Numbered from the stretch's first letter, positions 8,115-42,497 are shown. The stretch: 64,000 bases of DNA from Candidatus Tepidifontimicrobium thermophilum (GCA_031459915.1 JAVKHO010000003.1:32001-96000), one strand, 5' to 3'. A program made the numbers and translations. Notes: generated from the sequence alone by a model not told the origin.

Positions 8115-8141
8115 CCTCTGGCCGCGGGTTCACGGCCGGGC

Positions 8142-8147: not shown

Positions 8148-8176
8148 CGGGCTGGCCGGTCCCAGGCCGGCCACCT

Positions 8177-8261
8177 GCCCGGATGGCGGAACTGGCAGAC
8201 GCGCACGTTTGAGGGGCGTGTGGGGAAACCCGTGGGGGTTCGAATCCCCCTCCGGGCACCA
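8177..8261 (+). tRNA. tRNA-Leu(GAG)
   Basis: Acceptor GCCCGGA/TCCGGGC, anticodon arm CACGT-TTGAGGG-GCGTG, long variable arm, GGTTCGAATCC, encoded CCA. Confidence 0.97.
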
Positions 8262-8265
8262 GGTC

Positions 8266-9138
8266 TCAGTCCGTGTACGGAACTCCCAGGGCCTGTGGCT
8301 TCGCCAGTCCCCAGCGGGTCCGGAACCACGGGGTGCTGATGACGGTGAGGATGGCGATGGTCACGCCGAAGGGGACCGTCCGCCACACGTACCGGGAGAG
8401 CACGCCGGGCAGGACGTACTCGGGGCTCAGGGACAGCTGCCACATGGCGCCGAACAGTACCGATCCCCCCAAAAGAACCCACGGGTTCCACATGGAGAAG
8501 AACACCAGCGCCAGGCTCACGAACCCCCAACCCATGAGGAAGTTGTAGTTCCACACGGGGTTATAGGAGAGGGTGTACGCCGCGCCTGCCAGGCCCGCCA
8601 GGGTGCCGCCGAACACCACGCACAGGTACCGGATCCCGGCCACGTTCACGCCCGAGGCCGCCGCGGCGGCTGGGCTTTCGCCCACGGAGCGGATCGCAAG
8701 TCCCAACGACGTCCGGGAAAGCACGAACCAGACCGCGGCCACCAGCAGGGTTCCGCAGTACACGAAGGGGGACAGGCCCACAAGCGCGGGAAAGCGCGGC
8801 AGGCCCAGCGGGCCGGTGTGGGGGCTTCCCAAGTACGTGGTCAGGCCGAAGCTGAGGATCCATAGGCCCATACCGCTGACCACCTGGTCGCCCCGCAGGC
8901 GGATGGAGAACAGGCCGTGGATCCAGCCCAGCAGGCCGCCCACTGCGATCCCCGCGGCCAGTCCCGCCGGGTAGCTCCCGGTGGACTGGGCCACCAGGAA
9001 AGCGGCGGTCCCGCCGAACAGCATGAGTCCTTCCAGCCCGACGTTGAGGATCCCGGACCGCTGGTTCACGAGCTCGCCCAAAGCCGCCAGCAGGAACACC
9101 GTGGACGCCTCCAGGCTCCGGGCCAGCAGCTCGTTCAC
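8266..9138 (-). CDS. ABC transporter permease (nucleoside/BMP-type, NupC-like)
   Basis: [29 protein letters not shown]...G; GTG start overlapping the upstream stop. Confidence 0.9.
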
Positions 9139-10277
9139 CGGGCACCCTCCGGGCGGGGCGGCGCAGAGGTGGGGGCGGGCGCGGTACGCCGCCACACCAC
9201 CCGGTACCGGTCCACCAAGTGCGAGAACACGAAGGTGGTCATCAGCAGGCCCAGGATGGCGTAGTCCACGCCGAAGGGCAGGCGCAAAGCCCCCTGAGCG
9301 AAGCGCCCCCCCACGGACAGGCCGGCGAACAGCAACGCCATGGGGACCGCTCCCACGGCGCTCCCACGGGCGATGAGGGCGCAGATGATGCCGTAAAAGG
9401 ACAGGTCGCCGTAGTACCCGTAGTTGGTAGGGATCTTGTACAGGCCGGGCACAGCGGCGAAGTAATGGTAACCCGCCAGGCCCGAGAAGGCCCCGCCCAG
9501 CACGAACACCCACAGGGACACCCGGACGGGGTCGATCCCGGCATACCGGGCTGCCTGCGGGTTCAGGCCGAAGGTGCGGACGCGGTAGCCCGCGGCCGCC
9601 CGGGAGAAGACGAAGTCCACGACCACGGCCGCTGCCAGGCCGAGGAAGGCGCTGGGCGGCAGGCCCAGCGGGAGGGGGGGGCGGAAGGCCTCCGGCAGCG
9701 TGAAGCTTTCGCCCTCCGCGGTGGCGCTCATGAACGCACCGCCCTCCTTGATGAAGTCCGAAACCAGCCAGAACATCACGGAGTTGAGCATCATGGTCAC
9801 GAGAATCTCGTTCACCGCCAGCTTCGCCCGCAGCAGGCCCACCAGGGCGCCGAGGGAGGCGCCCGCCAGCGCTGCGGCCAAGGGCATGGACAGGAGCGCG
9901 ACGCCCCCGGCGGTGCCGGAGCCCAGCTCCCGGGCCCCCGCCCAGAAGGGCACCGCGAACGCCGCCAGCGCCCCCGCGTAAACCTGACCCGGCAGCCCAA
10001 TGTTCCACAGCCCGCCCCGCAGGGGGATCAGGAAGGCCAGGGTGCACAGCAGCAGGTAGACCGCCCGGTGCACGGTCGCGCCCAGGCCCGAGGGGTTGGC
10101 GAAGGCGTAGCCGAAGGCGATCCGGTAGGCGGTCCACGGGCCCGACTCTGGAGTCCAGAACAGCACGCTGGCCAACAGGAGCGCCAGAGCCACAGCCAGG
10201 AGGGCACCCAGAGCCACGCGGGGGGGCGAAGGGGCCTCCGCCCTTTCCACGGACAGGCGGTATGCGCCGATCCTCAA
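9135..10277 (-). CDS. ABC transporter permease (NupB-like)
   Basis: GLWNIG..GQ, VNEILVTMMLN, G.NP.AARYAGI; TTG start overlaps the upstream TGA (start approximate). Confidence 0.88.
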   Translation of the reverse strand: MRIGAYRLSVERAEAPSPPRVALGALLAVALALLLASVLFWTPESGPWTAYRIAFGYAFANPSGLGATVHRAVYLLLCTLAFLIPLRGGLWNIGLPGQVYAGALAAFAVPFWAGARELGSGTAGGVALLSMPLAAALAGASLGALVGLLRAKLAVNEILVTMMLNSVMFWLVSDFIKEGGAFMSATAEGESFTLPEAFRPPLPLGLPPSAFLGLAAAVVVDFVFSRAAAGYRVRTFGLNPQAARYAGIDPVRVSLWVFVLGGAFSGLAGYHYFAAVPGLYKIPTNYGYYGDLSFYGIICALIARGSAVGAVPMALLFAGLSVGGRFAQGALRLPFGVDYAILGLLMTTFVFSHLVDRYRVVWRRTAPAPTSAPPRPEGAR

Positions 10278-11818
10278 GCGCGCCTCCCCAGCGAGCCGGC
10301 CATCCACGCGCCCACGGTCTCAGGATCCGCCTCGTTCCGCGGCACGAGAGCCACGAACCGGCCCTCGTACAGGGCTCCCACTCGGTCGCTGACCGCGAAG
10401 ATCTCGTCCAAGTCCTCTGAGATGAGCAGAACCGCAGCGCCGCGTGCCTTGGCTTCCAGAAGCTGGGCCCGCACGAAGCTAGCCGCCTCCACGTCAAGGC
10501 CCTGGGTGGGCAGGTGAGCGACCAGCAGGCGCGGCTGCCGGGACAGCACCCGGCCGAGCACCAGCTTCTGTAGGTTTCCCCCCGACAGGTGCTGCGCCCG
10601 CACGTACGGGTGGGGAGCTTTCACCCGGAAGGTCGCCAGGATCTGACGGGTCAGCCGTTCCAGGCGGGCCCGGTCCAGCATCCCCCGGGGACAGAACTCC
10701 GGGTCGAAGTGGTAGTTGAGCCCGGTGTTCTCCACGAGGCTGAGGGCCGCTACGCTGGCGACCTCGGTACGTTCCGCGGGCACGTAGCCCAGCCCCAGGC
10801 GCCACCGGTCGAGGGTCGGAAGGTGGGTGACATCGCGGCCCAGCAGGCGCACGCGGCCGGAGACGGCCGGTCGAAGCCCCGCCAGCACCTGAGCCAGCTC
10901 CTCCTGCCCGTTGCCGGTGACCCCCGCTACGCCCACGATCTCGCCCTCGTGTACTGTGAGGGAGACGCCTCGCAGGCTCAGCACCCCCTTGTCGTTGTAC
11001 GCAGACAGGTCCTCCACTTCCAGCACCACGGGGCCGCGATGGTCGGGTGCTTGCACGGTGGGGAGGGTAACCTCCTGGCCCACCATGTGCTGGACCAGTT
11101 CGTGGTCGGTGGTGTCCGACACCGACAGCCGGGCTGCAACGCGGCCAGCGCGGAGCACCGTGACGGTTCGGGCCACCGCGCGCACCACGGGCAGCTTGTG
11201 GGTGACCAGAACCACGGTGACGCCGTCCTGGTCCACGAGGGCGCGCAGCGCCCGCAGCAGGGCCTGTACCTCCGGGGGCGTCAGGGCGGAGGTCGGCTCG
11301 TCCAGGATCAGAATGCGGACCCCCGCGTACAGGGCCTTCAGGATCTCCACCCACTGCTTCTCGCCTTCCGACAGCTGCCACACGCGGGCTCCCAGGTCCA
11401 CGTGGACACCGTACCGGGCACACAGGGCCTCGAGCTCCTGACGGGCCCGGCGCAGGTCTAGCAGCCCCCGGGCCCTGGGGTGACCCAGGACCAGGTTCTC
11501 CAGTACCGTGTGGGCAGGGACCAGTCTGCGGGTCTGGTGAACCATCCCGATGCCAGACGCCAGCGCGTCGTGGGGCGAGCGGAAGCGAACGCGTCGGCCG
11601 CGCAGGTACACTTCTCCCTCGTCCGGGTGGATCAGCCCGAAGAGGATGTTCATGAGGGTGGTCTTGCCGGCTCCGTTCTGACCTAGCACCGCGTGGACTT
11701 CCCCCTCCGCCACCTCGAGATCCACGCGGTCCAGGGCCCGGACCCCGGGGAAGGACTTGCTGATTCCCCGGGCGGCGAGAACAGGTGGGGGTGTGCGGTG
11801 CTCCAGCTCCGGCGTCAC
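10274..11818 (-). CDS. ABC transporter ATP-binding protein (duplicated NBD, NupA-like)
   Basis: GQNGAGKTT, LILDEPT, LSGGNLQK, LLISEDLDE. Confidence 0.95.
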   Translation of the reverse strand: MTPELEHRTPPPVLAARGISKSFPGVRALDRVDLEVAEGEVHAVLGQNGAGKTTLMNILFGLIHPDEGEVYLRGRRVRFRSPHDALASGIGMVHQTRRLVPAHTVLENLVLGHPRARGLLDLRRARQELEALCARYGVHVDLGARVWQLSEGEKQWVEILKALYAGVRILILDEPTSALTPPEVQALLRALRALVDQDGVTVVLVTHKLPVVRAVARTVTVLRAGRVAARLSVSDTTDHELVQHMVGQEVTLPTVQAPDHRGPVVLEVEDLSAYNDKGVLSLRGVSLTVHEGEIVGVAGVTGNGQEELAQVLAGLRPAVSGRVRLLGRDVTHLPTLDRWRLGLGYVPAERTEVASVAALSLVENTGLNYHFDPEFCPRGMLDRARLERLTRQILATFRVKAPHPYVRAQHLSGGNLQKLVLGRVLSRQPRLLVAHLPTQGLDVEAASFVRAQLLEAKARGAAVLLISEDLDEIFAVSDRVGALYEGRFVALVPRNEADPETVGAWMAGSLGRRA

Positions 11819-11825
11819 GGTCTGA

Positions 11826-11857
11826 CGGGGGCCGCGCCCGGCCGGGCGCGGCCCCCG
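11826..11857. repeat. Perfect 32-bp GC palindrome between binding-protein and ATPase genes
   Basis: CGGGGGCCGCGCCCGGCCGGGCGCGGCCCCCG equals its reverse complement. Confidence 0.85.
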
Positions 11858-11863
11858 GGGGGT

Positions 11864-13120
11864 TCACTTCAGGACGTTCAAACCGTTCAGGTCGAAGTTG
11901 AACTTCGACAGCAGCCACTCGTCGGTGGGCGTCTGCCCCGCCGGCTTCACCACGGTACCCTTCGGCGGGATGGGGGTCCCCGGGAGCGCTAGCCCGGTCC
12001 CGTTGCTCACCAGGGCGTGCACCTGGAAGGGGTCCCACTGCCCTCTGCGCATCTGCTCCCGCCGCTGAACCACCAGCCGCACGATGGACTCGGGGATCTG
12101 CCGGCGCGCCTTGGGGCTGATCGCGTCCACGCCCACCTTCTTGTTGTTCATGATGTCCACGGTGGACACCACGGTCCCGTCCGCGAGGGTCATGGTGTCC
12201 CGCATCCCGAGGTACAGGAGGTTGCGCGGGCTGCGGTTGCCCGCCAGGTAGTCCCGCACCATCCGGTCGTACAGGACCTCCCACCGGGTGTCGAAGGACA
12301 CCGCTACCGTGTCCGTGTTGGACCAGCCGTAGAAGCCCACGATGTCCATGTCCTTCCCCACGAACCAGATCCCTCGCTGCTGCGCTACGTCCAGGGGCGA
12401 GCCGGAGTCCGTCTGTTGGGTGAGGACGTCCACCCTGTACTGCGTGACCAGGGTCGTGGCCACCTCCCGCTCCTCCGTGGGCTTGTACCAGTCTCCCACG
12501 TACTTCACGTACACGTTCACGCGCTTTCCCAAGGCACGGGCGGCGTCCTGCACGCCCAGGAAGAATCCCGCGGTGCGCCGGAGCACCTGGACGTTGGGGA
12601 AGGCGGAGACCACGCCCACGTTACCGGTCCGGGTCAGGGCGCCCGCAATCAGCCCCTCCAGGTACAGCGCCTGGTACTGGCGGGGGAAGAACCGGATGAA
12701 GTTGGTCTTGCGGCTGACGTCGCTCGCCACCACGGAGCCGAAGTACACGTTGGGGTACTTGTCCGCGATGTCCTTCAGGGGCAGGCCCATGAACTCCGCG
12801 TTGCCGACCACGATGTTGGCTCCCTGACGGATGAGCTCCTCCGCGTACGGGACCGTCAGGTCCGGTCCGACCTCCTCGCGGTACACGTACTTGACGTTGG
12901 GGTACTTCTGCGCGATGCGCTGGCCCGCTCGGTGATGCGCACCCGACCATGTGGTGCCCTTGATGACGCTGAAGTGAAGGATGGCCAGGGTGACGGTGGG
13001 CGGGGCCGCGGACGCGGAGTGCACGTGCCACAGGGAACCTACGGCCAGCACGAGGACCAGGGCCACGGCTGAGGCCCGGAGCCAGGCGCGCGGAGCGCTC
13101 GAACAGGTGTGCCGATCCAT
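11864..13120 (-). CDS. BMP-family ABC substrate-binding protein
   Basis: Signal peptide ending ASA, W...H..A, YLEGLIAGALT..G.VG, GDWY.P..E; ATG 13120 chosen as start. Confidence 0.88.
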   Translation of the reverse strand: MDRHTCSSAPRAWLRASAVALVLVLAVGSLWHVHSASAAPPTVTLAILHFSVIKGTTWSGAHHRAGQRIAQKYPNVKYVYREEVGPDLTVPYAEELIRQGANIVVGNAEFMGLPLKDIADKYPNVYFGSVVASDVSRKTNFIRFFPRQYQALYLEGLIAGALTRTGNVGVVSAFPNVQVLRRTAGFFLGVQDAARALGKRVNVYVKYVGDWYKPTEEREVATTLVTQYRVDVLTQQTDSGSPLDVAQQRGIWFVGKDMDIVGFYGWSNTDTVAVSFDTRWEVLYDRMVRDYLAGNRSPRNLLYLGMRDTMTLADGTVVSTVDIMNNKKVGVDAISPKARRQIPESIVRLVVQRREQMRRGQWDPFQVHALVSNGTGLALPGTPIPPKGTVVKPAGQTPTDEWLLSKFNFDLNGLNVLK

Positions 13121-13277
13121 GGCTGCCCCCCAGAAATGCGAGGCTCGCCGGCGAGCCGCCGGCGGCAAGACGCGGCCTAGATTCTTCGCAGGCGCGCGGT
13201 TCTCCTCCTACGGCGAGAGGGCTCGATGGACAGCGGGTCGAATCCACGCACGCAGGAACGCGTTCCATGGGAGTGCC

Positions 13278-15035
13278 ATGCCGGTTCTCGCGCGGGTCCG
13301 CAGAGGCAGCTACCACGATTCGGTGGCCCTGCTGCAGGCGCAGCAGGCGCTCCGACAGATGCCGGGGGTGGAAGAGGCGGGGGTGGTCATGGCCACGCCC
13401 GCCAACCTCGCGTTGCTCCGGGGGGCAGGCCTGGACGCGCCGGAGCTCCAGGGGGCGGGGCCGGACGACCTGGTGGCGGTGGTCCGGGCGCGGACGCAGG
13501 CGGAGGGTGAGCGGGCGCTGGAACGCCTGGACGAGTTGCTGTCGCCGCGGGGGCCAGCCGGGGGCGCACCCTACCGGCCCCGCACGGTCCGGACGGCGGT
13601 GCGTGCCCTCCCGGGGGCCAACGTGGCCGTGGTGTCCGTACCGGGCCGGTTCGCGGCAGCCGTGGCGGAGGAGGCCCTGCGGGAAGGGCTCCACGTCTTC
13701 CTGTTCAGCGACAACGTGGCGCTGGAGGAGGAGGTGCGGCTCAAGCGCCTCGCGGCCGAGCGAGGGCTTCTCGTGATGGGGCCCGACTGCGGGACCGCCC
13801 TAGTGGCCGGAGCAGGGTTGGGGTTCGCCAACGCGGTCCGTCGCGGCCGTGTGGGAATCGTGGCCGCCTCGGGCACAGGCCTCCAGGAGGTGGCGTGCCT
13901 GGTGCACCGCTGGGGTAGCGGGATCTCCCACGGCCTGGGCACGGGCGGGCGTGACCTGTCCGACGCAGTGGGAGGGGCGAGCTTCGCCACAGCCCTTGCA
14001 GCCCTGGCGGAGGACCCTGGTACCGACGTGGTCGTGCTCCTGTCCAAGCCGCCGTCCCCTCACGTGGCGAGGCAGGTGCTCGCGTTGGCCCGGAGGTGCG
14101 AAAAGCCGGTGGTGGTGAACTTCCTGGGTGCGCAGCCACCGCCTCAGGTGGGGAACCTGTACTTCGCGTCGACCCTGGAGGAGGCGGCACGCTTGGCGGT
14201 CCGGCTTTCTGGTGGGCACCCACCCGCGGAGGCCGAGCTCGAGCCGGAGGCGGTGCCGTGGGCTGCGGGGCAGCGGTGGCTTCGGGGTCTGTTCGTGGGG
14301 GGCAGCCTGTGCGCGGAGGCCCAGCTGGTGCTGCGGGGGAGTCTGGGCCGGGTGTGGTCCAACGTCCCTCTCAGCCCGGACGCGCGGCTACCGGACCCGC
14401 TGGTGAGCCGGGAGCACACCGTGGTGGACTTAGGGTCCGACGAGTTCACCGTGGGGCGGCTGCACCCCATGCTGGACCCGTCCGTGCGCAGCCAAAGGCT
14501 GTTGCACGAGGCGCGGGATGCGGAGGTGGCGGTCCTGCTCGTGGACGTGGTTTTGGGCTTCGGAGCGCACCCGGACCCCGCGGGCGAGCTCGCACAGGCG
14601 TGGGAGGAGGCGGTGGGTACCGCCCGGAGGGCGGGCCGGGAGCTGGTGTGCGTGGCCTCGGTGTGCGGGACGGAGCTGGACCCGCAGCCGCACGGGAGCC
14701 AGGTGGAGCGGCTGCGGGGAGGTGGGGTGGTGGTGGCGCCCACCAACGCCGCGGCGGCCCGGATGGCGGGAGCCCTGTGCGGCCGGTCGGAGCCCCGGGG
14801 AGAAGCGGGGCCGCTGCCGCCCGTGGACCTCCCGGACGGAGAGGGTCGGACCCACGGAGTCCCCGCGGCGGTTCGGGAGCTCCTCCGAGGGCCAGTTCGG
14901 GCCGTTAACGTGGGCCTGGAGTCGTTCGCGCAGAGCCTGCAGTCGCAGGGCGTTCCGGTGGTGTCCGTGGACTGGAAGCCACCCGCGGCAGGCGATGCGG
15001 AGCTGCTGGAGCTGCTGTCGCGGCTGGGCGGCTGA
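13278..15035 (+). CDS. fdrA: FdrA/AllF family acyl-CoA synthetase-like protein
   Basis: SYHDSVALL, VMATPAN, FLFSDNV, MGPDCGTA, ASGTGLQE, GTGGRDLS, DLG.DEFT.GR.HPMLDP, C-terminal NVGLESFA..L...DWKPPA. Confidence 0.92.
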   Translation: MPVLARVRRGSYHDSVALLQAQQALRQMPGVEEAGVVMATPANLALLRGAGLDAPELQGAGPDDLVAVVRARTQAEGERALERLDELLSPRGPAGGAPYRPRTVRTAVRALPGANVAVVSVPGRFAAAVAEEALREGLHVFLFSDNVALEEEVRLKRLAAERGLLVMGPDCGTALVAGAGLGFANAVRRGRVGIVAASGTGLQEVACLVHRWGSGISHGLGTGGRDLSDAVGGASFATALAALAEDPGTDVVVLLSKPPSPHVARQVLALARRCEKPVVVNFLGAQPPPQVGNLYFASTLEEAARLAVRLSGGHPPAEAELEPEAVPWAAGQRWLRGLFVGGSLCAEAQLVLRGSLGRVWSNVPLSPDARLPDPLVSREHTVVDLGSDEFTVGRLHPMLDPSVRSQRLLHEARDAEVAVLLVDVVLGFGAHPDPAGELAQAWEEAVGTARRAGRELVCVASVCGTELDPQPHGSQVERLRGGGVVVAPTNAAAARMAGALCGRSEPRGEAGPLPPVDLPDGEGRTHGVPAAVRELLRGPVRAVNVGLESFAQSLQSQGVPVVSVDWKPPAAGDAELLELLSRLGG

Positions 15036-15139
15036 ACGTCCCCGAGGGTTCAGGTTAAGATGGGGAGGGCCCGGCTCCGGAGGCCCACCGGGCCCGCGCT
15101 CCGCTTGACGCGGACTTTCCCGGGACGTGGAGGCGACCC

Positions 15140-16381
15140 ATGGACGTGGACGCGGCCAACGACGTGGTGGTGCGGAGGATCCTGGATGCGCACCCTGTGC
15201 TGGTCGGCGTGGGCAGGGCCCTGGACGTGGTCCCGGGCATGCGGAAGGATCTCATCCTGCACGCGGGCCCCCCAGTCACCTGGGACCGCATGTGCGGTCC
15301 GCTTCGCGGGGCGGTTATCGGCGCGCTGCTGTACGAGGGCATGGCCCGGGACGAGCGGGAGGCCGTGGAGCTGGCGGCCTCCGGCGCGGTGCGGTTCGAG
15401 CCCTGCCACCACCACGCGGCCGTGGGCCCCATGGCGGGGGTGACTTCCGCGTCCATGCCCGTCTACATCGTGGAGAACCGCACGCACGGCAACCGCGCGT
15501 ACTCCAACTTCAACGAGGGGTACGGCCGGGTGCTGCGGTACGGCGCGTACGCGCCGGAGGTCCTGGATCGGCTCCGGTGGATCAACGAGACCGTGGCGCC
15601 CGCGCTCGGACAGGCGCTTCAGCGCATGGGCGGGCTGGACATGAAGGCGACCATCGCCCGGCAGCTCACCATGGGGGACGAAGGGCACAACCGGAACGTG
15701 GCGGGCTCCAGCCTCTTTGCCCGCCAGCTGGCCCCTGCCCTGGCGGACTGTGGCCTTGCCCGAGACGAGCTGAGGGGCGTGCTCCGCTACCTGGCGGAGA
15801 ACGACCTCGCCATCCTCAACCCGGTGATGGCGGCCTGCAAGGCCACCCTGGACGCAGCCCACGGGGTCACGGGGTCCAGCGTGGTCACCTGTATGGCCCG
15901 GAACGGCACGGAGTTCGGGATCCGGGTCTCCGGCCTGGGAGACCGGTGGTTCACCGCCCCGGCCCCAGTGCCGAAAGGGCTGTACTTCCCGGGCTTCCGG
16001 GAGGAGGACGCCAACCCCGACATCGGCGACTCCACCATCACGGAGACGGCGGGGATCGGTGCCTTTGCCATGGCCGCGGCACCCGCCATCGTGAAGTTCG
16101 TGGGGGGAACCCCGCAGGACGCCCTCGCCGCCACCCTGGAGATGTACGAGATCACCTTGACGGAGAATCCTGCCTTCGCCATCCCCCAGCTGGACTTCCG
16201 GGGAACTCCTACGGCCATCGACGTCCGGAAGGTGGTGCGGACCGGGATCACGCCCAGGGTCAACACGGGCATCGCCCACCGCGAGCCCGGCGTCGGGCAG
16301 ATCGGCGCCGGCCTGGTGCGGCCGCCCGTGGCGCCCTTCCAGGAGGCCCTCCGCGCACTAGCGGAGCTGGTTTCCCCATGA
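15140..16381 (+). CDS. ylbE: DUF1116 family protein (YlbE/AllG/YahG-like)
   Basis: LHAGPP..W..MCGP.RGA, PCHHH.AVGPMAG, MGDEGHNRN, ARNG.EFGIR, DIGDS.ITET.G.G. Confidence 0.92.
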   Translation: MDVDAANDVVVRRILDAHPVLVGVGRALDVVPGMRKDLILHAGPPVTWDRMCGPLRGAVIGALLYEGMARDEREAVELAASGAVRFEPCHHHAAVGPMAGVTSASMPVYIVENRTHGNRAYSNFNEGYGRVLRYGAYAPEVLDRLRWINETVAPALGQALQRMGGLDMKATIARQLTMGDEGHNRNVAGSSLFARQLAPALADCGLARDELRGVLRYLAENDLAILNPVMAACKATLDAAHGVTGSSVVTCMARNGTEFGIRVSGLGDRWFTAPAPVPKGLYFPGFREEDANPDIGDSTITETAGIGAFAMAAAPAIVKFVGGTPQDALAATLEMYEITLTENPAFAIPQLDFRGTPTAIDVRKVVRTGITPRVNTGIAHREPGVGQIGAGLVRPPVAPFQEALRALAELVSP

Positions 16382-19858: not shown

Positions 19859-19884
19859 GGGACCAACCCGAAGGAGGTGGTGAC

Positions 19885-20865: not shown

Positions 20866-20956
20866 CGGCCGGCCCGCGGATCCAGACCGCGGAGGTGGTA
20901 CGCTCACGGGAGAGGGCGTGGCCTCTAAGGTTGCGCCAGCGGAAGGGAGAAGCGCG

Positions 20957-22696: not shown

Positions 22697-22762
22697 GCCG
22701 CAGGAGGACGTGGCTCCAACGGCGTACAGGAAATCCCATCCCAGGCTGTGGAGGTGAGGCAC

Positions 22763-23599: not shown

Positions 23600-23600
23600 C

Positions 23601-24794: not shown

Positions 24795-24801
24795 GAGGGG
24801 C

Positions 24802-25734: not shown

Positions 25735-25742
25735 TGGCGGCG

Positions 25743-27002: not shown

Positions 27003-27004
27003 GC

Positions 27005-28210
27005 TTACCCCTCCTTGGGCTGCCAGCCACCCCTTGCGCTCTTCCGGCGCAACAGAGGTTCCAAGGAACGGGGCAGCAGCATGAGGTAGTTGACCGCCAC
27101 CAGGAATAGGAACAGTCCTGCGGCGTGGAACGGAGCGGAGGGCCCCACGGCGTCCCACAGGACGCCACCGAGGGCGGTGCCCAGGGCGACCCCCGCGCCC
27201 TCAACGGACATCGCGAGACCCAGGAGGGTGGCGCGCCGGGCAGGGGGCAGCAGGTCCATCAAAAGGGCATTCCACGCGGGCAGCATGGTGGCGTAGCCGA
27301 GCCCCAGGATCGCCACCAGGGGGATCAGGATCCACAGGGACCGGAAGAAGGGGAGGACGAAGAGCACCGCGGCTCCTGCTCCGATGCACATCGGGAGCAC
27401 CTCCAGCCGGTCCAGGCGGTCGATGAGACGGCCCAGGGGGACCAGCAAGAGTACCGTGAGGCCGGGTCCCGCCAGCAGCAGGACGCCGATCCACAGGGGC
27501 GTGAGTTTCAGGACCTCGCGGGCGTAGGGGGACAGGGTGGGTACCAGCATGCCCATAGCCAGAGTCTGCGCCGCCATCCCCGCCACCAGGGGCCACAGAC
27601 GCCCCGCGGTGAGTTCCACGTCGTGAACCGACTCCCGCAGCTCCTGCTGCACGTGACCGCGGGAGCGAGCCTCCAGCCGGCCTGCGAGGGGCAGCGCCGC
27701 CAGCTGGCAGGCCGCCACCAGCCCGAAGGCCGCGGCCGTGTGCACCTCCAGGAGGAAGTTGGCCAGCACGAACCCCAGGCCGGTCCCTACCAGCCAGCTG
27801 GTGAACACCGCGCCCATAGCGCTGCCGCGGCCGCCCTCCTCCGTGGCGTCCGCCACACCGCTCACCACCGCAGGCCAGACGGGGGAGGCTCCCGCCCCGC
27901 CCACCGCCGCCGCCAGCAGCAGCCCCCACACCGCCTCCACCTGAGCAAACAGCAGGGTAGCCAGGAGGGTCAGGGACAGCCCCGCCACCACGGGAAGTCG
28001 CCGACCCCACCGGTCCACCAGCCACCCGGACGGGACCTTCAGGGCCAGCTCCGACAGGTAGTAGACGGAGAGGGTGAGCCCCACCACGGACATTCCGTGC
28101 CCCACGCCGAAGCGCAGGTGGTTGGGCAGGAGGGTGAACAGCAACGCGCCCCGGGCGCACTCCACGAGTCCCACCAGGGCCGCGTGGGCGGTGGCGCGGT
28201 TACCGCGCAC
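27005..28210 (-). CDS. MFS transporter (possible LtaA-like glycolipid flippase)
   Basis: 12 TMs, G.LVDRWGRR motif, ASPVWP, LPAWNA. Confidence 0.85.
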   Translation of the reverse strand: MRGNRATAHAALVGLVECARGALLFTLLPNHLRFGVGHGMSVVGLTLSVYYLSELALKVPSGWLVDRWGRRLPVVAGLSLTLLATLLFAQVEAVWGLLLAAAVGGAGASPVWPAVVSGVADATEEGGRGSAMGAVFTSWLVGTGLGFVLANFLLEVHTAAAFGLVAACQLAALPLAGRLEARSRGHVQQELRESVHDVELTAGRLWPLVAGMAAQTLAMGMLVPTLSPYAREVLKLTPLWIGVLLLAGPGLTVLLLVPLGRLIDRLDRLEVLPMCIGAGAAVLFVLPFFRSLWILIPLVAILGLGYATMLPAWNALLMDLLPPARRATLLGLAMSVEGAGVALGTALGGVLWDAVGPSAPFHAAGLFLFLVAVNYLMLLPRSLEPLLRRKSARGGWQPKEG

Positions 28211-29363
28211 CCCGCAAGGCCTCCGGGAGAAGTTGGGTGATGGCCTCCGCGGCCTCCTCAGCCGCTCGGGGCCTGCGGGCCCGCCGGGCGGCGGCCCGCA
28301 TGGACTCCAGCGCCGCGGGGTCGCTCACCAGCTGCGCCACGACCCGCCGGAGCTCCTCCGGGTCCCGTGCCACCCGTGCCGCTCCGGAGGCCACCAGCAT
28401 CCGCGTGTTCCACTCCTCCTGACCGGGGATGGGACGGTAGATGACCATGGGCAGCTCCCGCACCAACGCCTCGGACACGGTGATCCCGCCCGCCTTGGTG
28501 ACCAGCAGGTCCGCCACCGCCATCCACTCGTGCACGTTGGAGACGAACCCATACACGTGGAAGTCCGGCCGACGCCGGCTCCGCTGCCGCAGACGCGCCA
28601 CCAACGCCTCGTCCCGCCCGCACACGAACACCGCCTGGACCCGCTGCGGGAGTGCCGACAGGACCCGGTGGACGTCCAGGATGCCCCCCAGCATCGCATA
28701 GGCTCCCGCCATCACCAGCACCGTGATCCGGGAAGGGTCTACGCCGAGCCGGCTTGCCACCTGCGCCCGATCCACCGGCTGCGCGAACGCGGGGTCCACG
28801 GGGATCCCCGTGACCCGGATGCGGCCGGGCGGCACCCCACGATCCATCAGTCCCGCGCGGACCTCCTCGGAAGCCACGCAGTACAGGTCCACGTGCGGGT
28901 GGATCCACTGGGAGTGCACCGCGTAGTCGGTCAGCACCACCGCGGAGGGTTGCGACGCCTTCCCCTCACCCTTGAGCTCAGAAAGGGAACCTGCGGGCGT
29001 GGGGTGGACCGAGACCACCACGTGGGGGCAGCGTTGCCGGAGGTACGCCAGGAGCCGGGCCTTCCCCAGGCGGTTGATGAACCGTTGCGTGGTGGAGTCC
29101 GGCCGGATGTTGCCGGTGGCATAGTAGAAGGCGCCCCACAGGCGCGGCGCGTGACGGACGCTGCGGACGTACAGGGATCGGGTGAGCCGGTTCACCGCGG
29201 GGTTCACAAACTGTTCGAAGAAGTCCACCACGTCCACCCGGACCCGAGGCAACACCCGACGCCAAGCGTCCTCGAGGACCTCCGCCACCCGCTGGTGTCC
29301 GCCCCCATAGGAGGCGGAGAGCACCAGGAAGGAGGGTGCCTCGGAGCAAGGGGCGCGATCCAT
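28200..29363 (-). CDS. MGDG synthase/UgtP-YpfP family glycosyltransferase (GT28)
   Basis: SASYGGGH, VLTDY..H..W, TGIPVDP.F, DLLVTKAGGITVSEAL, PIPGQEE.N. Confidence 0.92.
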   Translation of the reverse strand: MDRAPCSEAPSFLVLSASYGGGHQRVAEVLEDAWRRVLPRVRVDVVDFFEQFVNPAVNRLTRSLYVRSVRHAPRLWGAFYYATGNIRPDSTTQRFINRLGKARLLAYLRQRCPHVVVSVHPTPAGSLSELKGEGKASQPSAVVLTDYAVHSQWIHPHVDLYCVASEEVRAGLMDRGVPPGRIRVTGIPVDPAFAQPVDRAQVASRLGVDPSRITVLVMAGAYAMLGGILDVHRVLSALPQRVQAVFVCGRDEALVARLRQRSRRRPDFHVYGFVSNVHEWMAVADLLVTKAGGITVSEALVRELPMVIYRPIPGQEEWNTRMLVASGAARVARDPEELRRVVAQLVSDPAALESMRAAARRARRPRAAEEAAEAITQLLPEALRGAR

Positions 29364-29366
29364 GGC

Positions 29367-30341
29367 CTACGGGACCTCCCCGGAGATCGCTGGCGCGACT
29401 TCCGGGGCCAGCTGGCAGGCGTCCTCCGCGGCCTTCCACGGAAGGGAGTCAGGCGGCAGCAGGATCCGCAGGGCACGGGGGAGCACCCGCGCCTGGATCC
29501 TCCTCGCCGCCTCCATGGGGTTACCGTCCACGTGGGTCTCCACGGGCCGGTCTGCGTCCACGGTGACCCGGCGGCACCTCTGGATCACGATTTCCGGGAT
29601 GGGGGACCTCCGGAGCATCTTGAGCGCCGCGTTCAGGGATCGCATGCGGCGCATCTCCTGGATGATGTACAGGTCCAGCAGCCCGTCACGGAGACTCGGG
29701 GTGGGCAGAGCGGCCACCCGCTCCCCGTACATGCGCCCGTTCACCACCGCTACCAGCAAGACCCGGCCCGTAAACCGCTCCGACTCGGTGGTGACCTCTA
29801 CCTCGAGGGGCTCGCGGCCAGCCACCAGCTCCAGCAGGCTCGCCAGGAAGTAGACCGCGCGGCCCCGCAGGATGCGCCGGTCCCGGAGGCGGTTGGCGCC
29901 CACCGCCACCCGGGCGTCGAAACCGATCCCGAAGACGTTGGCGAAGAATCGGCCGTTGGCCTCCGCCACGTCGAAGGGTGCGGGCTCCGCGTGGATCAAC
30001 GCCTGCGTGGCCCGCTGCAGGCTCCGGGGGATGGGCAACCCCCGCACAAACTCGTTGGCCGTCCCCGCGGGAATGATCCCCAGCGCGCTGCGCCCGCCGG
30101 CGCGCATCACCCCGTTCACCACCGCGTTTACGGTGCCGTCCCCGCCGACCGCCACGACGGCGGGGAACCCAGCCCGGCTCCCGCGCTCCGCGGTCTCCGC
30201 GAGGGCGTGGAACCCCGCGGCCTGTTGGACCTCGTAGGCCACGCCCCGGCTGCGGAGCGCCCGCGTCACCAGGGGCAACGCGTCCGCGATCCGCCCGCCA
30301 CCCGCGTACGGGTTGACCACCAGAAGCAGCGGCTGCACCAC
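29367..30341 (-). CDS. Diacylglycerol/lipid kinase family protein (YegS/DagK-like)
   Basis: VVNPYAG, VGGDGTVN, IPAGTAN, GIGFDA, VDGNP. Confidence 0.92.
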   Translation of the reverse strand: MVQPLLLVVNPYAGGGRIADALPLVTRALRSRGVAYEVQQAAGFHALAETAERGSRAGFPAVVAVGGDGTVNAVVNGVMRAGGRSALGIIPAGTANEFVRGLPIPRSLQRATQALIHAEPAPFDVAEANGRFFANVFGIGFDARVAVGANRLRDRRILRGRAVYFLASLLELVAGREPLEVEVTTESERFTGRVLLVAVVNGRMYGERVAALPTPSLRDGLLDLYIIQEMRRMRSLNAALKMLRRSPIPEIVIQRCRRVTVDADRPVETHVDGNPMEAARRIQARVLPRALRILLPPDSLPWKAAEDACQLAPEVAPAISGEVP

Positions 30342-30350
30342 AAGCCCATT

Positions 30351-31193
30351 CTACGGTACCGGGCCGGGGGGAGCCGGCCGCGAGCCCTCGCCGGCCAGGA
30401 GCCCCGCCAGGAAGCCCGCCAGGGTGTCCGCGCCGGAGGTCTCACCGACCGACAGAACCTCCCGCGCAGCCGCTTCCCAGTCTCCTTCTGAAAGCGAAGC
30501 CGCGAGGCGGTGCCACGCTTCGGAGGCAAACCCTGCCGCAGCGGCCCGCAGGTAGGCTCGGGCGATGCGGTGCGTGCCCCGCGCGTGCTGCAGCAGGGTC
30601 TCCCGCGGCCGGCCCTGCAGGTAGAGGGCCAGCATCCAGCCGCACAGGAAGTCGTCCCCGCTGGGCGTGAGCCCCTGGCCGAGGCCGCAAAGCAGCCCGC
30701 AGCCGGATGCGTGCGCGCCCGCGGCGAGGGCAAGGGCTCCCTCCAGGGCCCTTCGATGCCAGTCGCGTAGGGAGGGACCGCGGCCTTGCAGCAGATGGGG
30801 GACCAGGCACGCGAGGCTTTCCGGCGGAGCTGACGCTACCAGCCACGCGCAGCAACGGCGCACCTGAACGGGGTCGGGCCTTGCGCGGGGCAGCGTGGGG
30901 TCCCACCGCGCCGCACCGTCGAGGTCCAGGGTCTGTTCGCCTGCTTGCAGGCAGGAGGGGGTGATCCGCACAGGATCCCCGGGCTGCAGGGACGCCCACG
31001 ACACACCTTCTGCGAGCAGACTCAGCGGGCCCCGACCGAGGTCCGGCGCCACCAGCGCGGCCACCGTCTCCTCAGGTCCCCAGAAGGCTACGTAGGCGCA
31101 GCGGCGGAAGGTGGCCAGCACGCGGCCCTGGGCGCCCCGGGCGCGGAGCGGCTCCAGCCAACGGGGGTACGCGAGGACGCGCACGGCGTTCAA
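30351..31193 (-). CDS. DUF2877 family protein (YlbF/AllH/YahE-like)
   Basis: GPLS, GLGQGLTPSGDDFLCG, GETSGADTLAG; TTG start overlaps the 2Fe-2S gene stop. Confidence 0.85.
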   Translation of the reverse strand: MNAVRVLAYPRWLEPLRARGAQGRVLATFRRCAYVAFWGPEETVAALVAPDLGRGPLSLLAEGVSWASLQPGDPVRITPSCLQAGEQTLDLDGAARWDPTLPRARPDPVQVRRCCAWLVASAPPESLACLVPHLLQGRGPSLRDWHRRALEGALALAAGAHASGCGLLCGLGQGLTPSGDDFLCGWMLALYLQGRPRETLLQHARGTHRIARAYLRAAAAGFASEAWHRLAASLSEGDWEAAAREVLSVGETSGADTLAGFLAGLLAGEGSRPAPPGPVP

Positions 31194-31678
31194 GTGCGGC
31201 GGGCCTGCAGGCGGCGTGCCGCGTCCTCCACCGCGCGGACGATGTTCTGGTAGCCGGTGCACCGGCAGAGGTGGCCTGCGAGGGCTTCCCGGATCTGCTG
31301 GCGGGACGGAGCGGGGTGCTCCCGCAGGAAGGCGACCACCGTCATCAGGATGCCCGGCGTGCAGAATCCGCACTGCAGCCCGTGGTTCTCCCAGAAGGCT
31401 TCCTGGACGGGGTGGAGCCGATCCACAGTACCGAGCGCCTCCACCGTGGTTACCCGGTGGCCGGCGGCCTGGATCGCCAGCAACAGGCACGACCGTACAG
31501 GCTCGCCGTCCAGCCACACCGTACACGCACCGCACACGCCCTGCTCGCAGCCCACGTGGGTGCCGGTAAGCTGCAGGTCCTCCCGGAGGACGTCTGCCAG
31601 GGTCTTGCGGACAGGCACCGTGACGGTGTAAGCCGCGCCGTTCACCTCCAGCTGCACGGTCCGCAGGGGTTCACGCAT
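31190..31678 (-). CDS. Molybdo-hydroxylase (2Fe-2S) subunit, CoxS-like
   Basis: GCEQGVCGACTV, SCL, QCGFCTPG, CRCTGY. Confidence 0.95.
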   Translation of the reverse strand: MREPLRTVQLEVNGAAYTVTVPVRKTLADVLREDLQLTGTHVGCEQGVCGACTVWLDGEPVRSCLLLAIQAAGHRVTTVEALGTVDRLHPVQEAFWENHGLQCGFCTPGILMTVVAFLREHPAPSRQQIREALAGHLCRCTGYQNIVRAVEDAARRLQARRT

Positions 31679-32558
31679 GGGCGCCTCCGGAGCGGGTCCG
31701 GGCGCGGGTCCAGGCGAGGCGGACGGTGCGCGCGGTCAGCACCGCGGCCAGGTGCCGCCGGAACTCACTGGAGGCGTGGAGGTCTCCGTCCGGCTGGAGG
31801 ACGCGGCGCGCCTCCGCGGAGGCGGCCCGGATTCCCTCTTCCAGGTCCGAGTGTTCTACCAGGGCGGCCTCCGCTTCGCGCAGCCGGACCGGTACCGGCC
31901 CTGCGCCCGCGTACGCCAGCCGGGCGTCCTGAATCCGTCCGTCCCCGGCCCGCACGCCTGCGGCCACCGCACACAGCGCGTAGTCCCCGTGACGGTTGCT
32001 CACCTCCAGGAAAGCCCAGCCCCAGTCCGGACCGGTGCACGGGAAACGTGCCTCCGCCAGCAGCTCGTCGGGCCGGAGGGCGGTGGTGAGAGGGCCGGTG
32101 AAGAACTCCTCGGCAGGGATCTCCCGGACCCCGGACCGGCTGCGGGCCACCAGCCGCGCGCCCACCGCCACCGCCACCGCCGGCAGCTCCGCCGCGGGGT
32201 CCGCGTGGGCCAGGCTTCCGCACACGGTCCCCCGGTTCCGGATCTGTGGGTGGCCCACGAACCGCACAGCCTCCGTCAGAAGGGGGACCATGCGCCTCAC
32301 TTCCGCTTCCCGCTCCAGCCGACGCTGGCGGACCCGGGCGCCGACCCGCAACCAGCCGGACTCCTCCGTCAGGTAGTCCAGGGCGTCGATACGGTTGATG
32401 TCCACCACCACTTCCGGACGGGCCAGCCGCAGGTTGAGCAGGGGCATGAGGCTCTGGCCGCCTGCCAGCACCTTCGCGGCCGCCCCGTGGCGTGCCAGCA
32501 GCTCCAGTGCTTCCTCTACGGAAGCAGGGTCCTGGTAGTCAAAGACCGGCGGCTTCAC
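31671..32558 (-). CDS. Molybdo-hydroxylase FAD subunit, CoxM-like
   Basis: KPPVFDY, LAGGQSL.P, IRNRGT.CGSLAHADPAAE. Confidence 0.93.
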   Translation of the reverse strand: MKPPVFDYQDPASVEEALELLARHGAAAKVLAGGQSLMPLLNLRLARPEVVVDINRIDALDYLTEESGWLRVGARVRQRRLEREAEVRRMVPLLTEAVRFVGHPQIRNRGTVCGSLAHADPAAELPAVAVAVGARLVARSRSGVREIPAEEFFTGPLTTALRPDELLAEARFPCTGPDWGWAFLEVSNRHGDYALCAVAAGVRAGDGRIQDARLAYAGAGPVPVRLREAEAALVEHSDLEEGIRAASAEARRVLQPDGDLHASSEFRRHLAAVLTARTVRLAWTRARTRSGGAHA

Positions 32559-32998
32559 GCGGAGCCCTCCTGCAGCTTCCGGTCCAAACACTGGAAGAAC
32601 TGGCCGGCCAGCATGCGGGCGATGCCCGGGATCATGCGGCTGCCGAGGGTCAAAGCACCCCCCACCTGAACCTCTCCGGACCAGCGCACGCCAGTCTGTG
32701 CGCCCTGGTCTTCCAGCTCCAGGACCCCCACCGCCCGCACGAAGCCCGCGCCGCTGCTGCCCTCCACCTGCACCGCGTAGCGCTCGGGCGGGGTGCGCTC
32801 GGTGATCCGGAGCTTGCCCTTGTACGTACCCCGGACTGCGGCGATCCCGATGGACAGGACCGCCTCGAACTCGTCGGGGCCCGTGGGCCGGAGCTCCTGC
32901 ATGCCGGGCGTGCAGCTGGCCAGGGCCTGCGGGTCGTCCAGCAACGCCCACACGCGGTCGCGGGGTGCGTGCAGGGTCTCGGTTCCCTCGATCTTCAT
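32555..32998 (-). CDS. coxG: CoxG/SRPBCC family protein
   Basis: AP.DRVW..L.DP..LA.C.PG, FFQCL; between the large and FAD subunit genes. Confidence 0.88.
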   Translation of the reverse strand: MKIEGTETLHAPRDRVWALLDDPQALASCTPGMQELRPTGPDEFEAVLSIGIAAVRGTYKGKLRITERTPPERYAVQVEGSSGAGFVRAVGVLELEDQGAQTGVRWSGEVQVGGALTLGSRMIPGIARMLAGQFFQCLDRKLQEGSA

Positions 32999-35334
32999 GG
33001 CGTCCTCCGGGAAGCTTTCTGGATCAGTTCGAACAGCGCGTCCGGGTGCAGCGGCATGCGCAGGATCTCCAGCTCCAGGTCGTCCAGGGCATCCTCGATC
33101 GCCTGCGCCAGGAGCGCGGGAACCGGGATCACACCTCCTTCCCCCGCCCCCTTGGCACCGATGGGGTTCAGGGGCGATGGGGTCTCCTGGTGGATCACCT
33201 CGACCTCCGGGATCTCCACCGCGGTGGGGATGTGGAAGTCCATGAAGGAGCCCGACAGCAGCTGTCCCGAGTCGTCGTACACCAGGCGCTCGAAGAAGGA
33301 TCCCCCGATCCCCTGGGCCACCCCACCGTGGATCTGGCCGTCCAGGATGAGGGGGTTGAGGACGGTCCCGCAGTCGTGCACCACCACGTACCGCAGGAAA
33401 CGCAGGGTGGCCGTCTCCGGATCCACCTCCACCAGCGCCGCGTGCACCCCGTGGGAGAAGGTCCCCCGGGGCGGCGCGAAGTAGCGGGTGGCCTCCAGGC
33501 CCGGTCCCTCCCACTCCGCGGGGATCACGCCCCGCAAAGGGTTCGCCGCGCGGGCGACCTCGCCTAGGCTCACGGAGCGCGACGGCGCGCCGCGCACCCG
33601 GACCCGTCCATCCGCCAGCTCCAAGTCCTCCGGACTGGCTTCCAGGAGGGAGGCGGCCACCTGCAGGGCCTTCTGCCGGACCGCCTGAGCCGCCAGGTGC
33701 ACCGCGCTGCCGGCCACCACCGCGGCTCGGCTGGCAAACGTCCCAGTTCCCCACCCGAAGGCGCCGGTGTCCCCCGTGACCACGTGGACGTCCCCTACGT
33801 CCACGCCCAACGCTTCTGCCACCACCTGGGCCAGCGAGGTAGCGTGGCCCTGTCCCTGGGTCCCCACGCCGGTGGCCACGTACACCTTCCCTGAAGGTTC
33901 CACGGTGACACGGCAGCCCTCGTACGGGCCGATGCCGGAGCCCTCCACGTAACACGCGAACCCGAGCCCCACCCGACGGCCCTGGGCCCGGTAGCGGGCC
34001 TTCTCCTCCGGCCACCGGCAATACCCTACCTCCTCCAGGGCGCGTTCCAGGGCCGCGGGGTAGTTCCCGCTGTCGTACACCAGGGGCGCGTTGTCCTGGT
34101 AGATCAGGCCCACGTCGTAGGGGAACTCGTGGGGCTGGATGAAGTTCCGGCGGCGGATCTCTGCGCGGTCCATGCCGAGCTCGCGGGCGGCGAGGTCCAG
34201 CAGCCGCTCCATGACGAAGACCCCGTGGGGCCGGCCCGCGCCCCGGTACGGGCTCACGATGGTCTTGTTGGTGAACACCGCGCGGAACTCCGCGTGGTAG
34301 TTGGGGATTCGGTACGGCCCCGGGAGCGTGCACTCTGCCACGATGGGAACGATGAGGCCGTAGGGGATGTACGCACCGGCGTCGTGGAGGAACACCGTGC
34401 GGACCCCGAGGATGCGGCCCTCGCGGTCGAGGGCGATCTCCGCGTCGTGGATCTGAGTGCGCTCGTGGTTGGTGGCCACGAAGTGCTCCCGCCGATCCTC
34501 GATCCACTTCACGGGCCGGCCCAGCCGCATGGCCGCCAGGGGCACCAGCACCTCCTCCGGGTAGAACATCATGATCTTCGGCCCGAACCCGCCGCCCACG
34601 TCCGGCGCGATCACCCGCACGTCCTTCTGCGCCAGCCCGAACAGCGCCGCTAGGCCGTTGCGGATCGGGATGGGGGCCTGGGTACTGTCCCACACCGTCA
34701 GCTGGCGTGCCCTGGGGTCCCACTGCGCCACGACCCCGCGGGTTTCGATGGGCGAGGCGCACCCCCGGTCCACCACGAACCGCCGCGCCACCACGAGATC
34801 CGCGCGGGCGCGGGCGGCCTCGTAGTCGCCCACGCGCTGGACCGAGTGGGCGGCCACGTTGGTGCCGATGTCCTCGTGCACCAGCGCAGGCCGGCCGGCG
34901 GCGGCCTCCTCCAGATCCACCACCGCCGGCAGGGGCTCGTAGTCCACCTCGACGAGCTCTAGGGCGTCTTCCGCCGCATACCGGCTGGTGGCCACCACGA
35001 ACGCCACGGGTTCGCCCACGTGTCGGACCTTGTCGGGGGCCAAGGCGTACTGGGTCTTGTGGTGCTTGAGGTCCGGGTGGGGGATGAGCTTCGGAAGCGG
35101 CTCCCGGAGGCTGGGGGGCAGGTCCCCGTGGGTCAGCACCAGGAGCACGTCCGGGTGCTCGAGGGCCCGGCGGACGTCGATCCGCCGGATTCGGGCGTGC
35201 GCGTGGGGGCTACGGAGTACCGCGGCGTGCAGCATCCCCGGCAGCTGGACGTCATCTACGAACAGGCCCTGGCCCACGAGGAGGCGAGGGTCCTCGTTGC
35301 GCTTGATGGGCGCGCCGAGCCAGCGGGTCGCCAT
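32995..35334 (-). CDS. Xanthine dehydrogenase-family molybdopterin subunit (CoxL form II-like; substrate unknown)
   Basis: RNEDPRLL.G, RSPHAHA, VGGGFGPK, active-site loop PYRGAGR, GQGH.T, GAKGAGEGG. Confidence 0.93.
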   Translation of the reverse strand: MATRWLGAPIKRNEDPRLLVGQGLFVDDVQLPGMLHAAVLRSPHAHARIRRIDVRRALEHPDVLLVLTHGDLPPSLREPLPKLIPHPDLKHHKTQYALAPDKVRHVGEPVAFVVATSRYAAEDALELVEVDYEPLPAVVDLEEAAAGRPALVHEDIGTNVAAHSVQRVGDYEAARARADLVVARRFVVDRGCASPIETRGVVAQWDPRARQLTVWDSTQAPIPIRNGLAALFGLAQKDVRVIAPDVGGGFGPKIMMFYPEEVLVPLAAMRLGRPVKWIEDRREHFVATNHERTQIHDAEIALDREGRILGVRTVFLHDAGAYIPYGLIVPIVAECTLPGPYRIPNYHAEFRAVFTNKTIVSPYRGAGRPHGVFVMERLLDLAARELGMDRAEIRRRNFIQPHEFPYDVGLIYQDNAPLVYDSGNYPAALERALEEVGYCRWPEEKARYRAQGRRVGLGFACYVEGSGIGPYEGCRVTVEPSGKVYVATGVGTQGQGHATSLAQVVAEALGVDVGDVHVVTGDTGAFGWGTGTFASRAAVVAGSAVHLAAQAVRQKALQVAASLLEASPEDLELADGRVRVRGAPSRSVSLGEVARAANPLRGVIPAEWEGPGLEATRYFAPPRGTFSHGVHAALVEVDPETATLRFLRYVVVHDCGTVLNPLILDGQIHGGVAQGIGGSFFERLVYDDSGQLLSGSFMDFHIPTAVEIPEVEVIHQETPSPLNPIGAKGAGEGGVIPVPALLAQAIEDALDDLELEILRMPLHPDALFELIQKASRRTP

Positions 35335-42496: not shown

Positions 42497-42497
42497 G

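Follow-up and report, generated by a model that had tools for sequence, protein, structure and literature searches.

The classical oxidative pathway of pyrimidine degradation runs through barbiturate and then ureidomalonate, and the available text of PMC3758960 calls it rare, with barbiturase-family genes in about 3% of genomes. A second described system is the AllF-AllG-AllH complex of Escherichia coli, which acts on oxalurate and is, according to the available text of PMC11326118, the sole AllFGH complex to have been assayed; relatives occur in comammox bacteria and ammonia-oxidizing archaea, where allFGHK adjoins biuret genes (available text of PMC12625717). Here we describe a gene set at positions 8266-35334 of a 64,000-nucleotide stretch, hereafter the window, from Candidatus Tepidifontimicrobium thermophilum (GCA_031459915.1, JAVKHO010000003.1:32001-96000), in which genes for an AllFGH-like complex occur together with those for a molybdenum (Mo) hydroxylase, a cyclase-family metal hydrolase, a fused AccD-AccA carboxyltransferase and a CaiB coenzyme A (CoA) transferase. 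Judging from sequence, and with a probability that we put at roughly 0.7, this set encodes a variant of the oxidative degradation route for uracil/thymine that relies on a cyclase and AllFGH. The identities of the genes, their coupling and the exchange between barbiturase and cyclase are established, while every reaction is one that we infer.

The first enzyme of the pathway in Rhodococcus erythropolis, uracil/thymine dehydrogenase, is reportedly of the Mo type, and is followed by barbiturase (EC 3.5.2.1) and ureidomalonase. The window would share this type of first step and the same predicted intermediates. Two BMP-ABC importers may bring in a pyrimidine base or nucleoside, and the Mo/FeS/FAD enzyme would hydroxylate uracil (or thymine) at C6 to barbiturate (or 5-methylbarbiturate), with electrons passing on through CoxG. 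The cyclase-family hydrolase would open the barbiturate ring to ureidomalonate, performing the job of barbiturase with a different fold, and AllF-AllG-AllH, by analogy with oxalurate, which is one carbon shorter, may phosphorolyse ureidomalonate to malonamate and carbamoyl phosphate. An unlinked carbamate kinase would convert the carbamoyl phosphate to ATP, ammonia and CO2. Malonamate would first lose its amide nitrogen (for which other taxa have a C-N hydrolase or an amidase), after which CaiB would make malonyl-CoA and the fused AccDA would decarboxylate it to acetyl-CoA. Unlike R. erythropolis, the genome carrying the window (the host) has a cyclase-family protein instead of an AtzD/barbiturase gene, and the prediction is that the ureido group is released as carbamoyl phosphate and not as urea, no urease having been found in the genome.

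The initial annotation had guessed at a uracil-type substrate, and independent evidence in favour of that guess comes from loci where barbiturase occupies the position of the cyclase while CaiB, AccDA, the Mo enzyme and AllFGH are shared with the window. These comprise two named actinobacterial records and 80 metagenome loci, the latter being the best 80 of 577, biased to relatives of the query and in many cases short. When a plasmid collection was searched with the Mo subunit alone, Nonomuraea and Embleya came out on top, neither being among the 23 records with a relative of the cyclase. In each, the neighbours of the Mo genes are allH-allF-allG and genes for a PucR regulator and an NCS2 permease; Nonomuraea holds caiB, accDA and barbiturase inside about 45 kb, and Embleya has in addition a C-N hydrolase and a run of caiB, accDA, carbamate kinase and barbiturase (PF09663), the last of which scores 594.6 bits against the R. 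erythropolis barbiturase 5HWE, the best cyanuric acid hydrolase giving 324. Across the metagenome loci, barbiturase (80 of 80) is accompanied by carbamate kinase in 46, the hydantoinase A subunit in 20, CaiB in 19, AccDA in 18, and more rarely by the Mo large subunit (12), an all gene (12) or a member of the pseudouridine glycosidase family (3); the cyclase is found in none of the 80. One operon recurs in five loci (L201, L203, L217, L227, L228) and consists of a GNAT-like gene, accDA, barbiturase, allH, allF, allG and Mo genes. The hydantoinase/oxoprolinase A/B genes near barbiturase (L159-L238; 20 of 80 loci) are, speculatively, a candidate ATP-dependent opener of 5-methylbarbiturate.

Proteins from the barbiturase loci and the two named records were used as queries against the host proteome, and the window gene was the best match for the barbiturase-linked large subunit of the main Mo clade (9/9), the FAD subunit (6/6), CoxG (7/7), CaiB (20/20), AllF (11/11), AllG (10/10) and AccDA (19/19, a result that the length of the fusion favours). 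The small FeS subunit mapped to the window gene in only 2 of 10 cases, and for six subunits belonging to a second Mo clade the best match lies outside the window. A reciprocal view is given by the best 80 of 564 allG loci (3-21 kb each, with profiles built from the same loci), which contain allF in 70 cases, the cyclase in 59, the Mo large subunit in 32, CaiB in 26, a C-N hydrolase in 22, allH in 16, the profile of BMP binding protein 1 in 14, an amidase in 11, AccDA in 8 and carbamate kinase in 1, and in which a profile search found barbiturase in none. The same parts list therefore occurs with either barbiturase or cyclase, and both occur together in 0 of 160 loci; this pattern of exclusion marks the replacement of barbiturase by the cyclase. 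The host genome has no match to the AtzD/TrzD family (PF09663), and of 41 relatives searched with PF09663 two were positive, the one checked being of the cyanuric-acid-hydrolase type.

Genes near related loci also point to pyrimidines: cytosine deaminase is recurrent (520.8 bits, cut-off 438), dihydropyrimidinases score 592 and 469.6 bits (cut-off 393), and the best models for three NCS2 permeases, all of them under cut-off, were RutG/uracil permease twice and xanthine permease once. An oxidative pyrimidine route is further favoured by the 96% complete host genome, in which PreA, RutA, urease, arginine deiminase and uricase are not over cut-off. It is conceivable, if unlikely, that the same logic serves a different N-heterocycle (a modified pyrimidine, for example, or a hydantoin or a pyridine-type ring) and that barbiturate is no more than a side substrate. 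The closest solved Mo enzymes, which are CoxL-like, 6-hydroxypseudooxynicotine and quinoline enzymes, would suit such a substrate, as would the distance of the cyclase from isatin hydrolase and kynurenine formamidase and the pairing of three Mo clades with cyclase or barbiturase; the allFGHK genes beside biuret genes (available text of PMC12625717) suggest that AllFGH relatives may take other ureides. Pulling the other way are the recurrence of cytosine deaminase, the fit of a C3 malonyl product to AccDA, and the presence in the cyclase's slot of a barbiturase at 594.6 bits with the same CaiB, AccDA, Mo enzyme and AllFG. A possible source of uracil is a locus elsewhere in the genome (G000:C19:3621-10484, L251), where pseudouridine glycosidase-like and PfkB kinase genes are divergent from a third BMP-ABC importer.

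The cyclase-family metal hydrolase (22763-23599, + strand; 278 amino acids) scores 115.8 bits on PF04199 against a cut-off of 23.1, retains the metal-binding His/His/Asp motif together with the later His and Glu, and is predicted from its sequence and position to be a barbiturate ring-opening enzyme with a fold differing from that of barbiturase. It resembles the amidohydrolases of its family (isatin hydrolase, KynB) in PF04199 and the metal motif and differs from them in its predicted substrate, a cyclic ureide; its matches to solved members reach only E values of 1e-10 to 1e-3, and an arylformamidase model gives 37 bits against a cut-off of 223. A homologue at 69% is encoded in L101, a locus labelled Symbiobacterium thermophilum. 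Relatives in haloarchaea (40-43% identity) are next to Mo enzymes of another clade in 4 of the 6 loci fetched, and a Rhodococcus relative (36%) sits in an aromatic cluster. On haloarchaeal plasmids (L242, L244, L246, L247) the cyclase occurs with a distinct Mo enzyme, NCS2 permeases and a CocE/NonD hydrolase, with no allFGH, and these loci are possibly a third version of the route. Chloroflexota loci (L107-L152) encode a tandem double cyclase, in which the metal ligands are lost in the N-terminal half and mostly kept in the C-terminal half.

All three AllFGH subunit families are represented in the window above cut-off (NF004760, PF06545, PF11392). The AllF/FdrA-like subunit (13278-15035, +; 585 amino acids; 535 bits on NF004760, cut-off 433) is 44% identical to YahF and 38.5% to FdrA. 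When aligned with the host's SucD it matches over the CoA and phosphate sites and has no match over the phospho-histidine loop, a pattern compatible with an acyl phosphate being released instead of captured; its invariant residues in the alignment include C171 and H396, and a carbamoyl-thioester intermediate on CoA or on Cys171 may be imagined, as speculation. AllG/DUF1116 (15140-16381, +; 413 amino acids; 322 bits on PF06545) has a predicted structure (predicted local distance difference test score, pLDDT, 82) that matched only 3CLQ (Z 51.5, root-mean-square deviation 1.8, 404 residues aligned; next Z 3.8), a match that gives no mechanistic clue. AllH/DUF2877 (30351-31184, -; 277 amino acids; 82.5 bits on PF11392) is the last gene of the Mo operon. 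With E. coli AllF-AllG-AllH and AllK (available text of PMC11326118) the window shares the three subunit homologues, a carbamate kinase in the genome and a predicted acyl-urea phosphorolysis; it differs in that allH is 14 kb away from allG, in the other operon, allantoin genes are missing, AllF is nearer to YahF than to FdrA, and AllG falls outside the purine-type clade. The uncharacterised E. coli YahE-YahF-YahG-YahI has the same three families plus a carbamate kinase, and YahG carries Asn184; the yah region is unlike the window in missing a Mo enzyme, cyclase and AccDA, and YahG is outside the window's AllG clade.

Purine catabolism, with a xanthine dehydrogenase and an oxalurate-specific AllFGH as in E. 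coli, is very improbable here. BMP importers often carry purine nucleosides, and window AllG shares 51% identity with its E. coli counterpart; moreover, oxalurate is what the only assayed AllFGH takes (available text of PMC11326118). Against these stand the missing partners, for the initial annotation had left it to be seen if canonical allantoin genes lie elsewhere in the genome, and the route proved absent: E. coli AllA, AllC and AllE have no match at E 1e-6, AllB (31%) and AllD (34-36%) have only distant ones, the allantoinase model stays under cut-off, and uricase is likewise not over cut-off. Models for XdhA and PucD score far under cut-off. The purine-type AllG proteins form a clade of their own, in which 9 of 9 rows have Gln at position 184, where the window has Asn, as do the barbiturase-linked proteins, YahG and in all 121 of 131 rows; Asn184 is the default, and therefore shows only that window AllG lacks the purine-type mark. 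A second AllG clade from the host's order serves as a control: it groups with E. coli AllG (FastTree support 97, on a long branch), and its neighbours allantoinase, allantoate amidohydrolase, 8-oxoguanine deaminase and PucD each exceed their cut-offs.

Purine clusters of this kind (L057, L059, L060, L061, L067) have a lone allG paralogue, with no allF or allH in the fetched stretch, and allantoinase, allantoate amidohydrolase, a PucG-like aminotransferase and PucD as partners. Two further AllG clades comprise a divergent lone allG within another Mo-enzyme operon (L058, L062, L065) and runs of allF, allG and carbamate kinase (L053, L055).

The Mo operon, leftward and on the minus strand, consists of the large subunit (32995-35334), predicted to be a uracil/thymine dehydrogenase, the CoxG accessory protein (32555-32998; PF06240), the FAD subunit (31671-32558; PF00941, PF03450), the 2Fe-2S subunit (31190-31678; PF01799, PF00111) and AllH. 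The initial annotation had recognised a Mo-hydroxylase operon with DUF2877 as its last gene, and had overlooked coxG. The large subunit passes NF040766 (CODH_aero_grp5, 'aerobic carbon-monoxide dehydrogenase large subunit') at 1038.7 bits against a cut-off of 950, many homologues bear that name, and coxG is present, all of which would agree with a Mo operon that is an aerobic CO dehydrogenase as annotated, the left operon then being a separate system. We regard this as extremely improbable: TIGR02416 gives 591.7 bits against a cut-off of 991.15, a barbiturase-linked large subunit scores 1514 on NF040766, allH is the last gene of the Mo operon, both operons are lost together, and the cysteine motif for Cu binding, which we take to be the mark of form I CoxL, is missing from the window protein (YRGAGR) and present in a paralogue on contig C28 (YRCSFR). 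Since the genome holds that large subunit with the form I motif, CO oxidation by the host is not in question. In a tree, the window, cyclase-linked and barbiturase-linked large subunits fall in one clade (100/100). The host genome has six further Mo large subunits besides that of the window.

The fused AccD-AccA carboxyltransferase (20957-22696, +), a predicted malonyl-CoA decarboxylase, is by tree and motifs a paralogue of the housekeeping pair, whose separate accD and accA lie beside accB and accC on C32. Its zinc finger and the two oxyanion-hole motifs are intact, and a tree with one outgroup places it as sister to the host's housekeeping pair; accB and accC are not nearby, and the fusion was not found in four pathway-negative genomes. 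Barbiturase-linked AccDA belongs, in the same tree, to a distant clade without the zinc finger. Recruitment of a fused carboxyltransferase thus seems to have taken place on two occasions, as would suit malonyl-CoA as the substrate. The window protein shares its retained motifs with AccD/AccA and with MdcD/MdcE of malonate decarboxylase; unlike them it is fused with no accB/accC near, and unlike housekeeping AccD/AccA it is lost with the catabolic genes and is predicted to run as a decarboxylase. One barbiturase-linked fused AccDA without the zinc finger, at L156:24296-25699, presumably resembles the actinobacterial AccD3/AccDA type of unknown function. The family III CoA-transferase CaiB (23601-24794, +; PF02515) is predicted to activate malonate or malonamate.

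The slot for loss of nitrogen from malonamate is filled in other taxa by a C-N hydrolase, an amidase or a GNAT-like gene. A 240-residue protein without a Pfam hit, GNAT-like by language-model features (L203:7612-8349, L112:931-1656), occupies the place where CaiB or an amidase is missing, and might convert malonamate straight to malonyl-CoA. An amidase-free variant, in which CaiB makes malonamoyl-CoA and AccDA cleaves its C-C bond to acetyl-CoA and carbamate or cyanate in an amide counterpart of decarboxylation, is doubtful. In its favour, none of 8 AccDA-bearing allG loci has a C-N hydrolase or amidase, against 33 AccDA-free loci that do, and the host genome is without a cluster-type amidase. 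This distribution, however, follows phylum, and actinobacterial loci (L156, L215, L272) hold both. AccDA as a general substitute for the amidase was unsupported in the barbiturase loci, where both occur in 1 of 80 with about 2 expected.

The initial annotation had treated 8266-35334 as one cluster, and every gene it named is present in the window and matches its own family by profile score; the genes form two operons, split by 5.5 kb of unrelated genes (24802-30341). The two operons are nevertheless coupled and lost as a unit, beyond chance, because the set is contiguous in other genomes and is lost together. Contiguity of the whole set is seen in L046, L049, L051 and L124 (other families and a Bacillota-labelled record). 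For loss we surveyed 41 genomes of the host's order, its own included (G023 being one row, with thresholds of our choosing): allG is present in 37, the cyclase in 36, an orthologue of the Mo subunit in 34 and fused AccDA in 35, with all four in 31 genomes, 6 short of one, and 4 without any (G008, G010, G011, G013; completeness 89-99%), kin here not being independent and loss events numbering at most two or three. The allG tally takes in paralogues, G019 giving only 54-60% matches, and an NF040766 search at E 1e-250 (23 of 41 genomes, against 34 of 41 with a protein query) undercounts and so was not used. In G013 a deletion scar reads secG-caiB-eamA-ykoP...DAG kinase-coxG-peptidase, the frame of the window minus both halves, and G008, G010 and G011 retain caiB, the lipid block and coxG; the scars are located at L258 (G013:C23) and L255-L257 and span two families. 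At least the 25743-30341 block survives loss of the pathway, and it is missing from between the halves in other families. The co-conservation on which the initial annotation had placed weight was thereby found, both across phyla and among genomes of the host's order.

Several observations weigh against oxidative pyrimidine degradation or parts of it. The exclusion of cyclase and barbiturase is confounded with phylum and does not amount to a statistical test. Haloarchaeal cyclase loci are without any all gene, and one of them has a xanthine permease and a cytosine deaminase, both over cut-off. Variovorax and Serratia enzymes, near which no pyrimidine genes lie inside 8 kb, are likewise members of the Mo clade that unites the window with barbiturase-linked enzymes; exclusive monophyly of the cyclase- and barbiturase-linked groups is neither shown nor rejected (approximately unbiased test, p-AU 0.0625), and six barbiturase- or cyclase-linked large subunits fall in a second clade and four haloarchaeal cyclase-linked ones in a third. 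Searches of the PDB with both BMP binding proteins named no ligand. An amidase is not encoded in the cluster, and one of cluster type was not found in the host genome, where C-N hydrolases reach 27-34% and the best amidase, unlinked, 41%. Carbamate kinase, absent from the window as the initial annotation had said, lies elsewhere in the genome on contig C33 (364.6 bits, cut-off 358.25); it occurs in 31 of the 41 genomes, 2 of the 4 pathway-negative ones among them, and was not found in 8 pathway-positive ones, a distribution that does not support its tracking the pathway within the order. Finally, caiB and coxG persist in genomes that lost the pathway, and therefore have some use of their own. 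CaiB is thus less pathway-specific than had been supposed, being kept in G008, G010, G011 and G013, and strict specificity is weakened accordingly.

The remaining genes complete the layout. Leftmost (8266-13120, minus strand) is BMP-ABC importer 1, with permeases at 8266-9138 and 9135-10307 (PF02653), an ATPase at 10274-11818 (PF00005 twice) and a binding protein at 11864-13120 (PF02608; best PDB match 6PI5, E 7.6e-25), relatives of which also come after Mo-enzyme genes in Chloroflexota loci. Then follows rightward allF-allG-importer 2-accDA-cyclase-caiB (13278-24794), in which importer 2 (+) has an ATPase at 16378-17892 (PF00005), two permeases at 17889-19858 (17889-18923 and about 18920-19858; PF02653) and a binding protein at 19855-20865 (start approximate; PF02608; best PDB match 6PI5, E 9.5e-24). 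Between this and the leftward Mo operon (35334-30351) lie, at 24802-30341, an EamA exporter (24802-25734, -; PF00892) and five lipid or cell-surface genes (25743-30341), namely YkoP, a polysaccharide deacetylase, a major facilitator superfamily transporter, monogalactosyldiacylglycerol synthase and diacylglycerol (DAG) kinase. EamA adjoins allH in five related loci, yet is kept in pathway-negative G013, and is possibly pathway-associated. In the host genome allF, allG and a cyclase of the window type each occur once, and the guanine-plus-cytosine content of the cluster equals that of the remainder of the window. No sigma-70-like promoter was found at 8000-26000, where terminator-like sites are at chance level, and no Rfam riboswitch in the window. 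A tRNA-Leu(GAG) at 8177-8261 (+), missed by Rfam at gathering score, stops 5 bases short of the cluster's last gene. A second catabolic block at 38314-56770 encodes MaoC, CaiB, acyl-CoA dehydrogenase, a two-subunit fumarase, GntR, TRAP/TAXI, PrpB-like, PdxA, PrpD, isopropylmalate-dehydrogenase-like and M29 peptidase-like proteins and TctCBA, and looks like one for itaconate/methylsuccinate or tricarboxylate use.

The closest named relatives of the host are CSP1-3 (Sysuimicrobiota) genomes. The main texts of PMC11604079 and PMC11962464, in their available parts, leave pyrimidine unmentioned, and the latter credits all CSP1-3 genomes with CoxLMS. Among full-text literature (main texts, with few subscription papers) nothing was found linking AllFGH, the cyclase or AccDA to barbiturate, and the gene set is real, coupled and apparently undescribed. 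If oxidative pyrimidine degradation is its function, the complex would have a second AllFGH substrate and the cell could draw ATP from uracil; the carbamate kinase found in 46 of 80 loci would suggest that barbiturase-bearing actinobacteria, too, often use carbamoyl phosphate over urea. Were the amidase-free variant true, a new reaction for the carboxyltransferase fold would be added to a new barbiturase fold and that second substrate. By implication NF040766, named 'aerobic CO dehydrogenase', would be a pyrimidine hydroxylase, and counts of CO oxidisers would be inflated. If the cyclase does replace barbiturase, the route would be present in most sampled members of the CSP1-3 order, in Chloroflexota and in others, where annotation has left it unseen.

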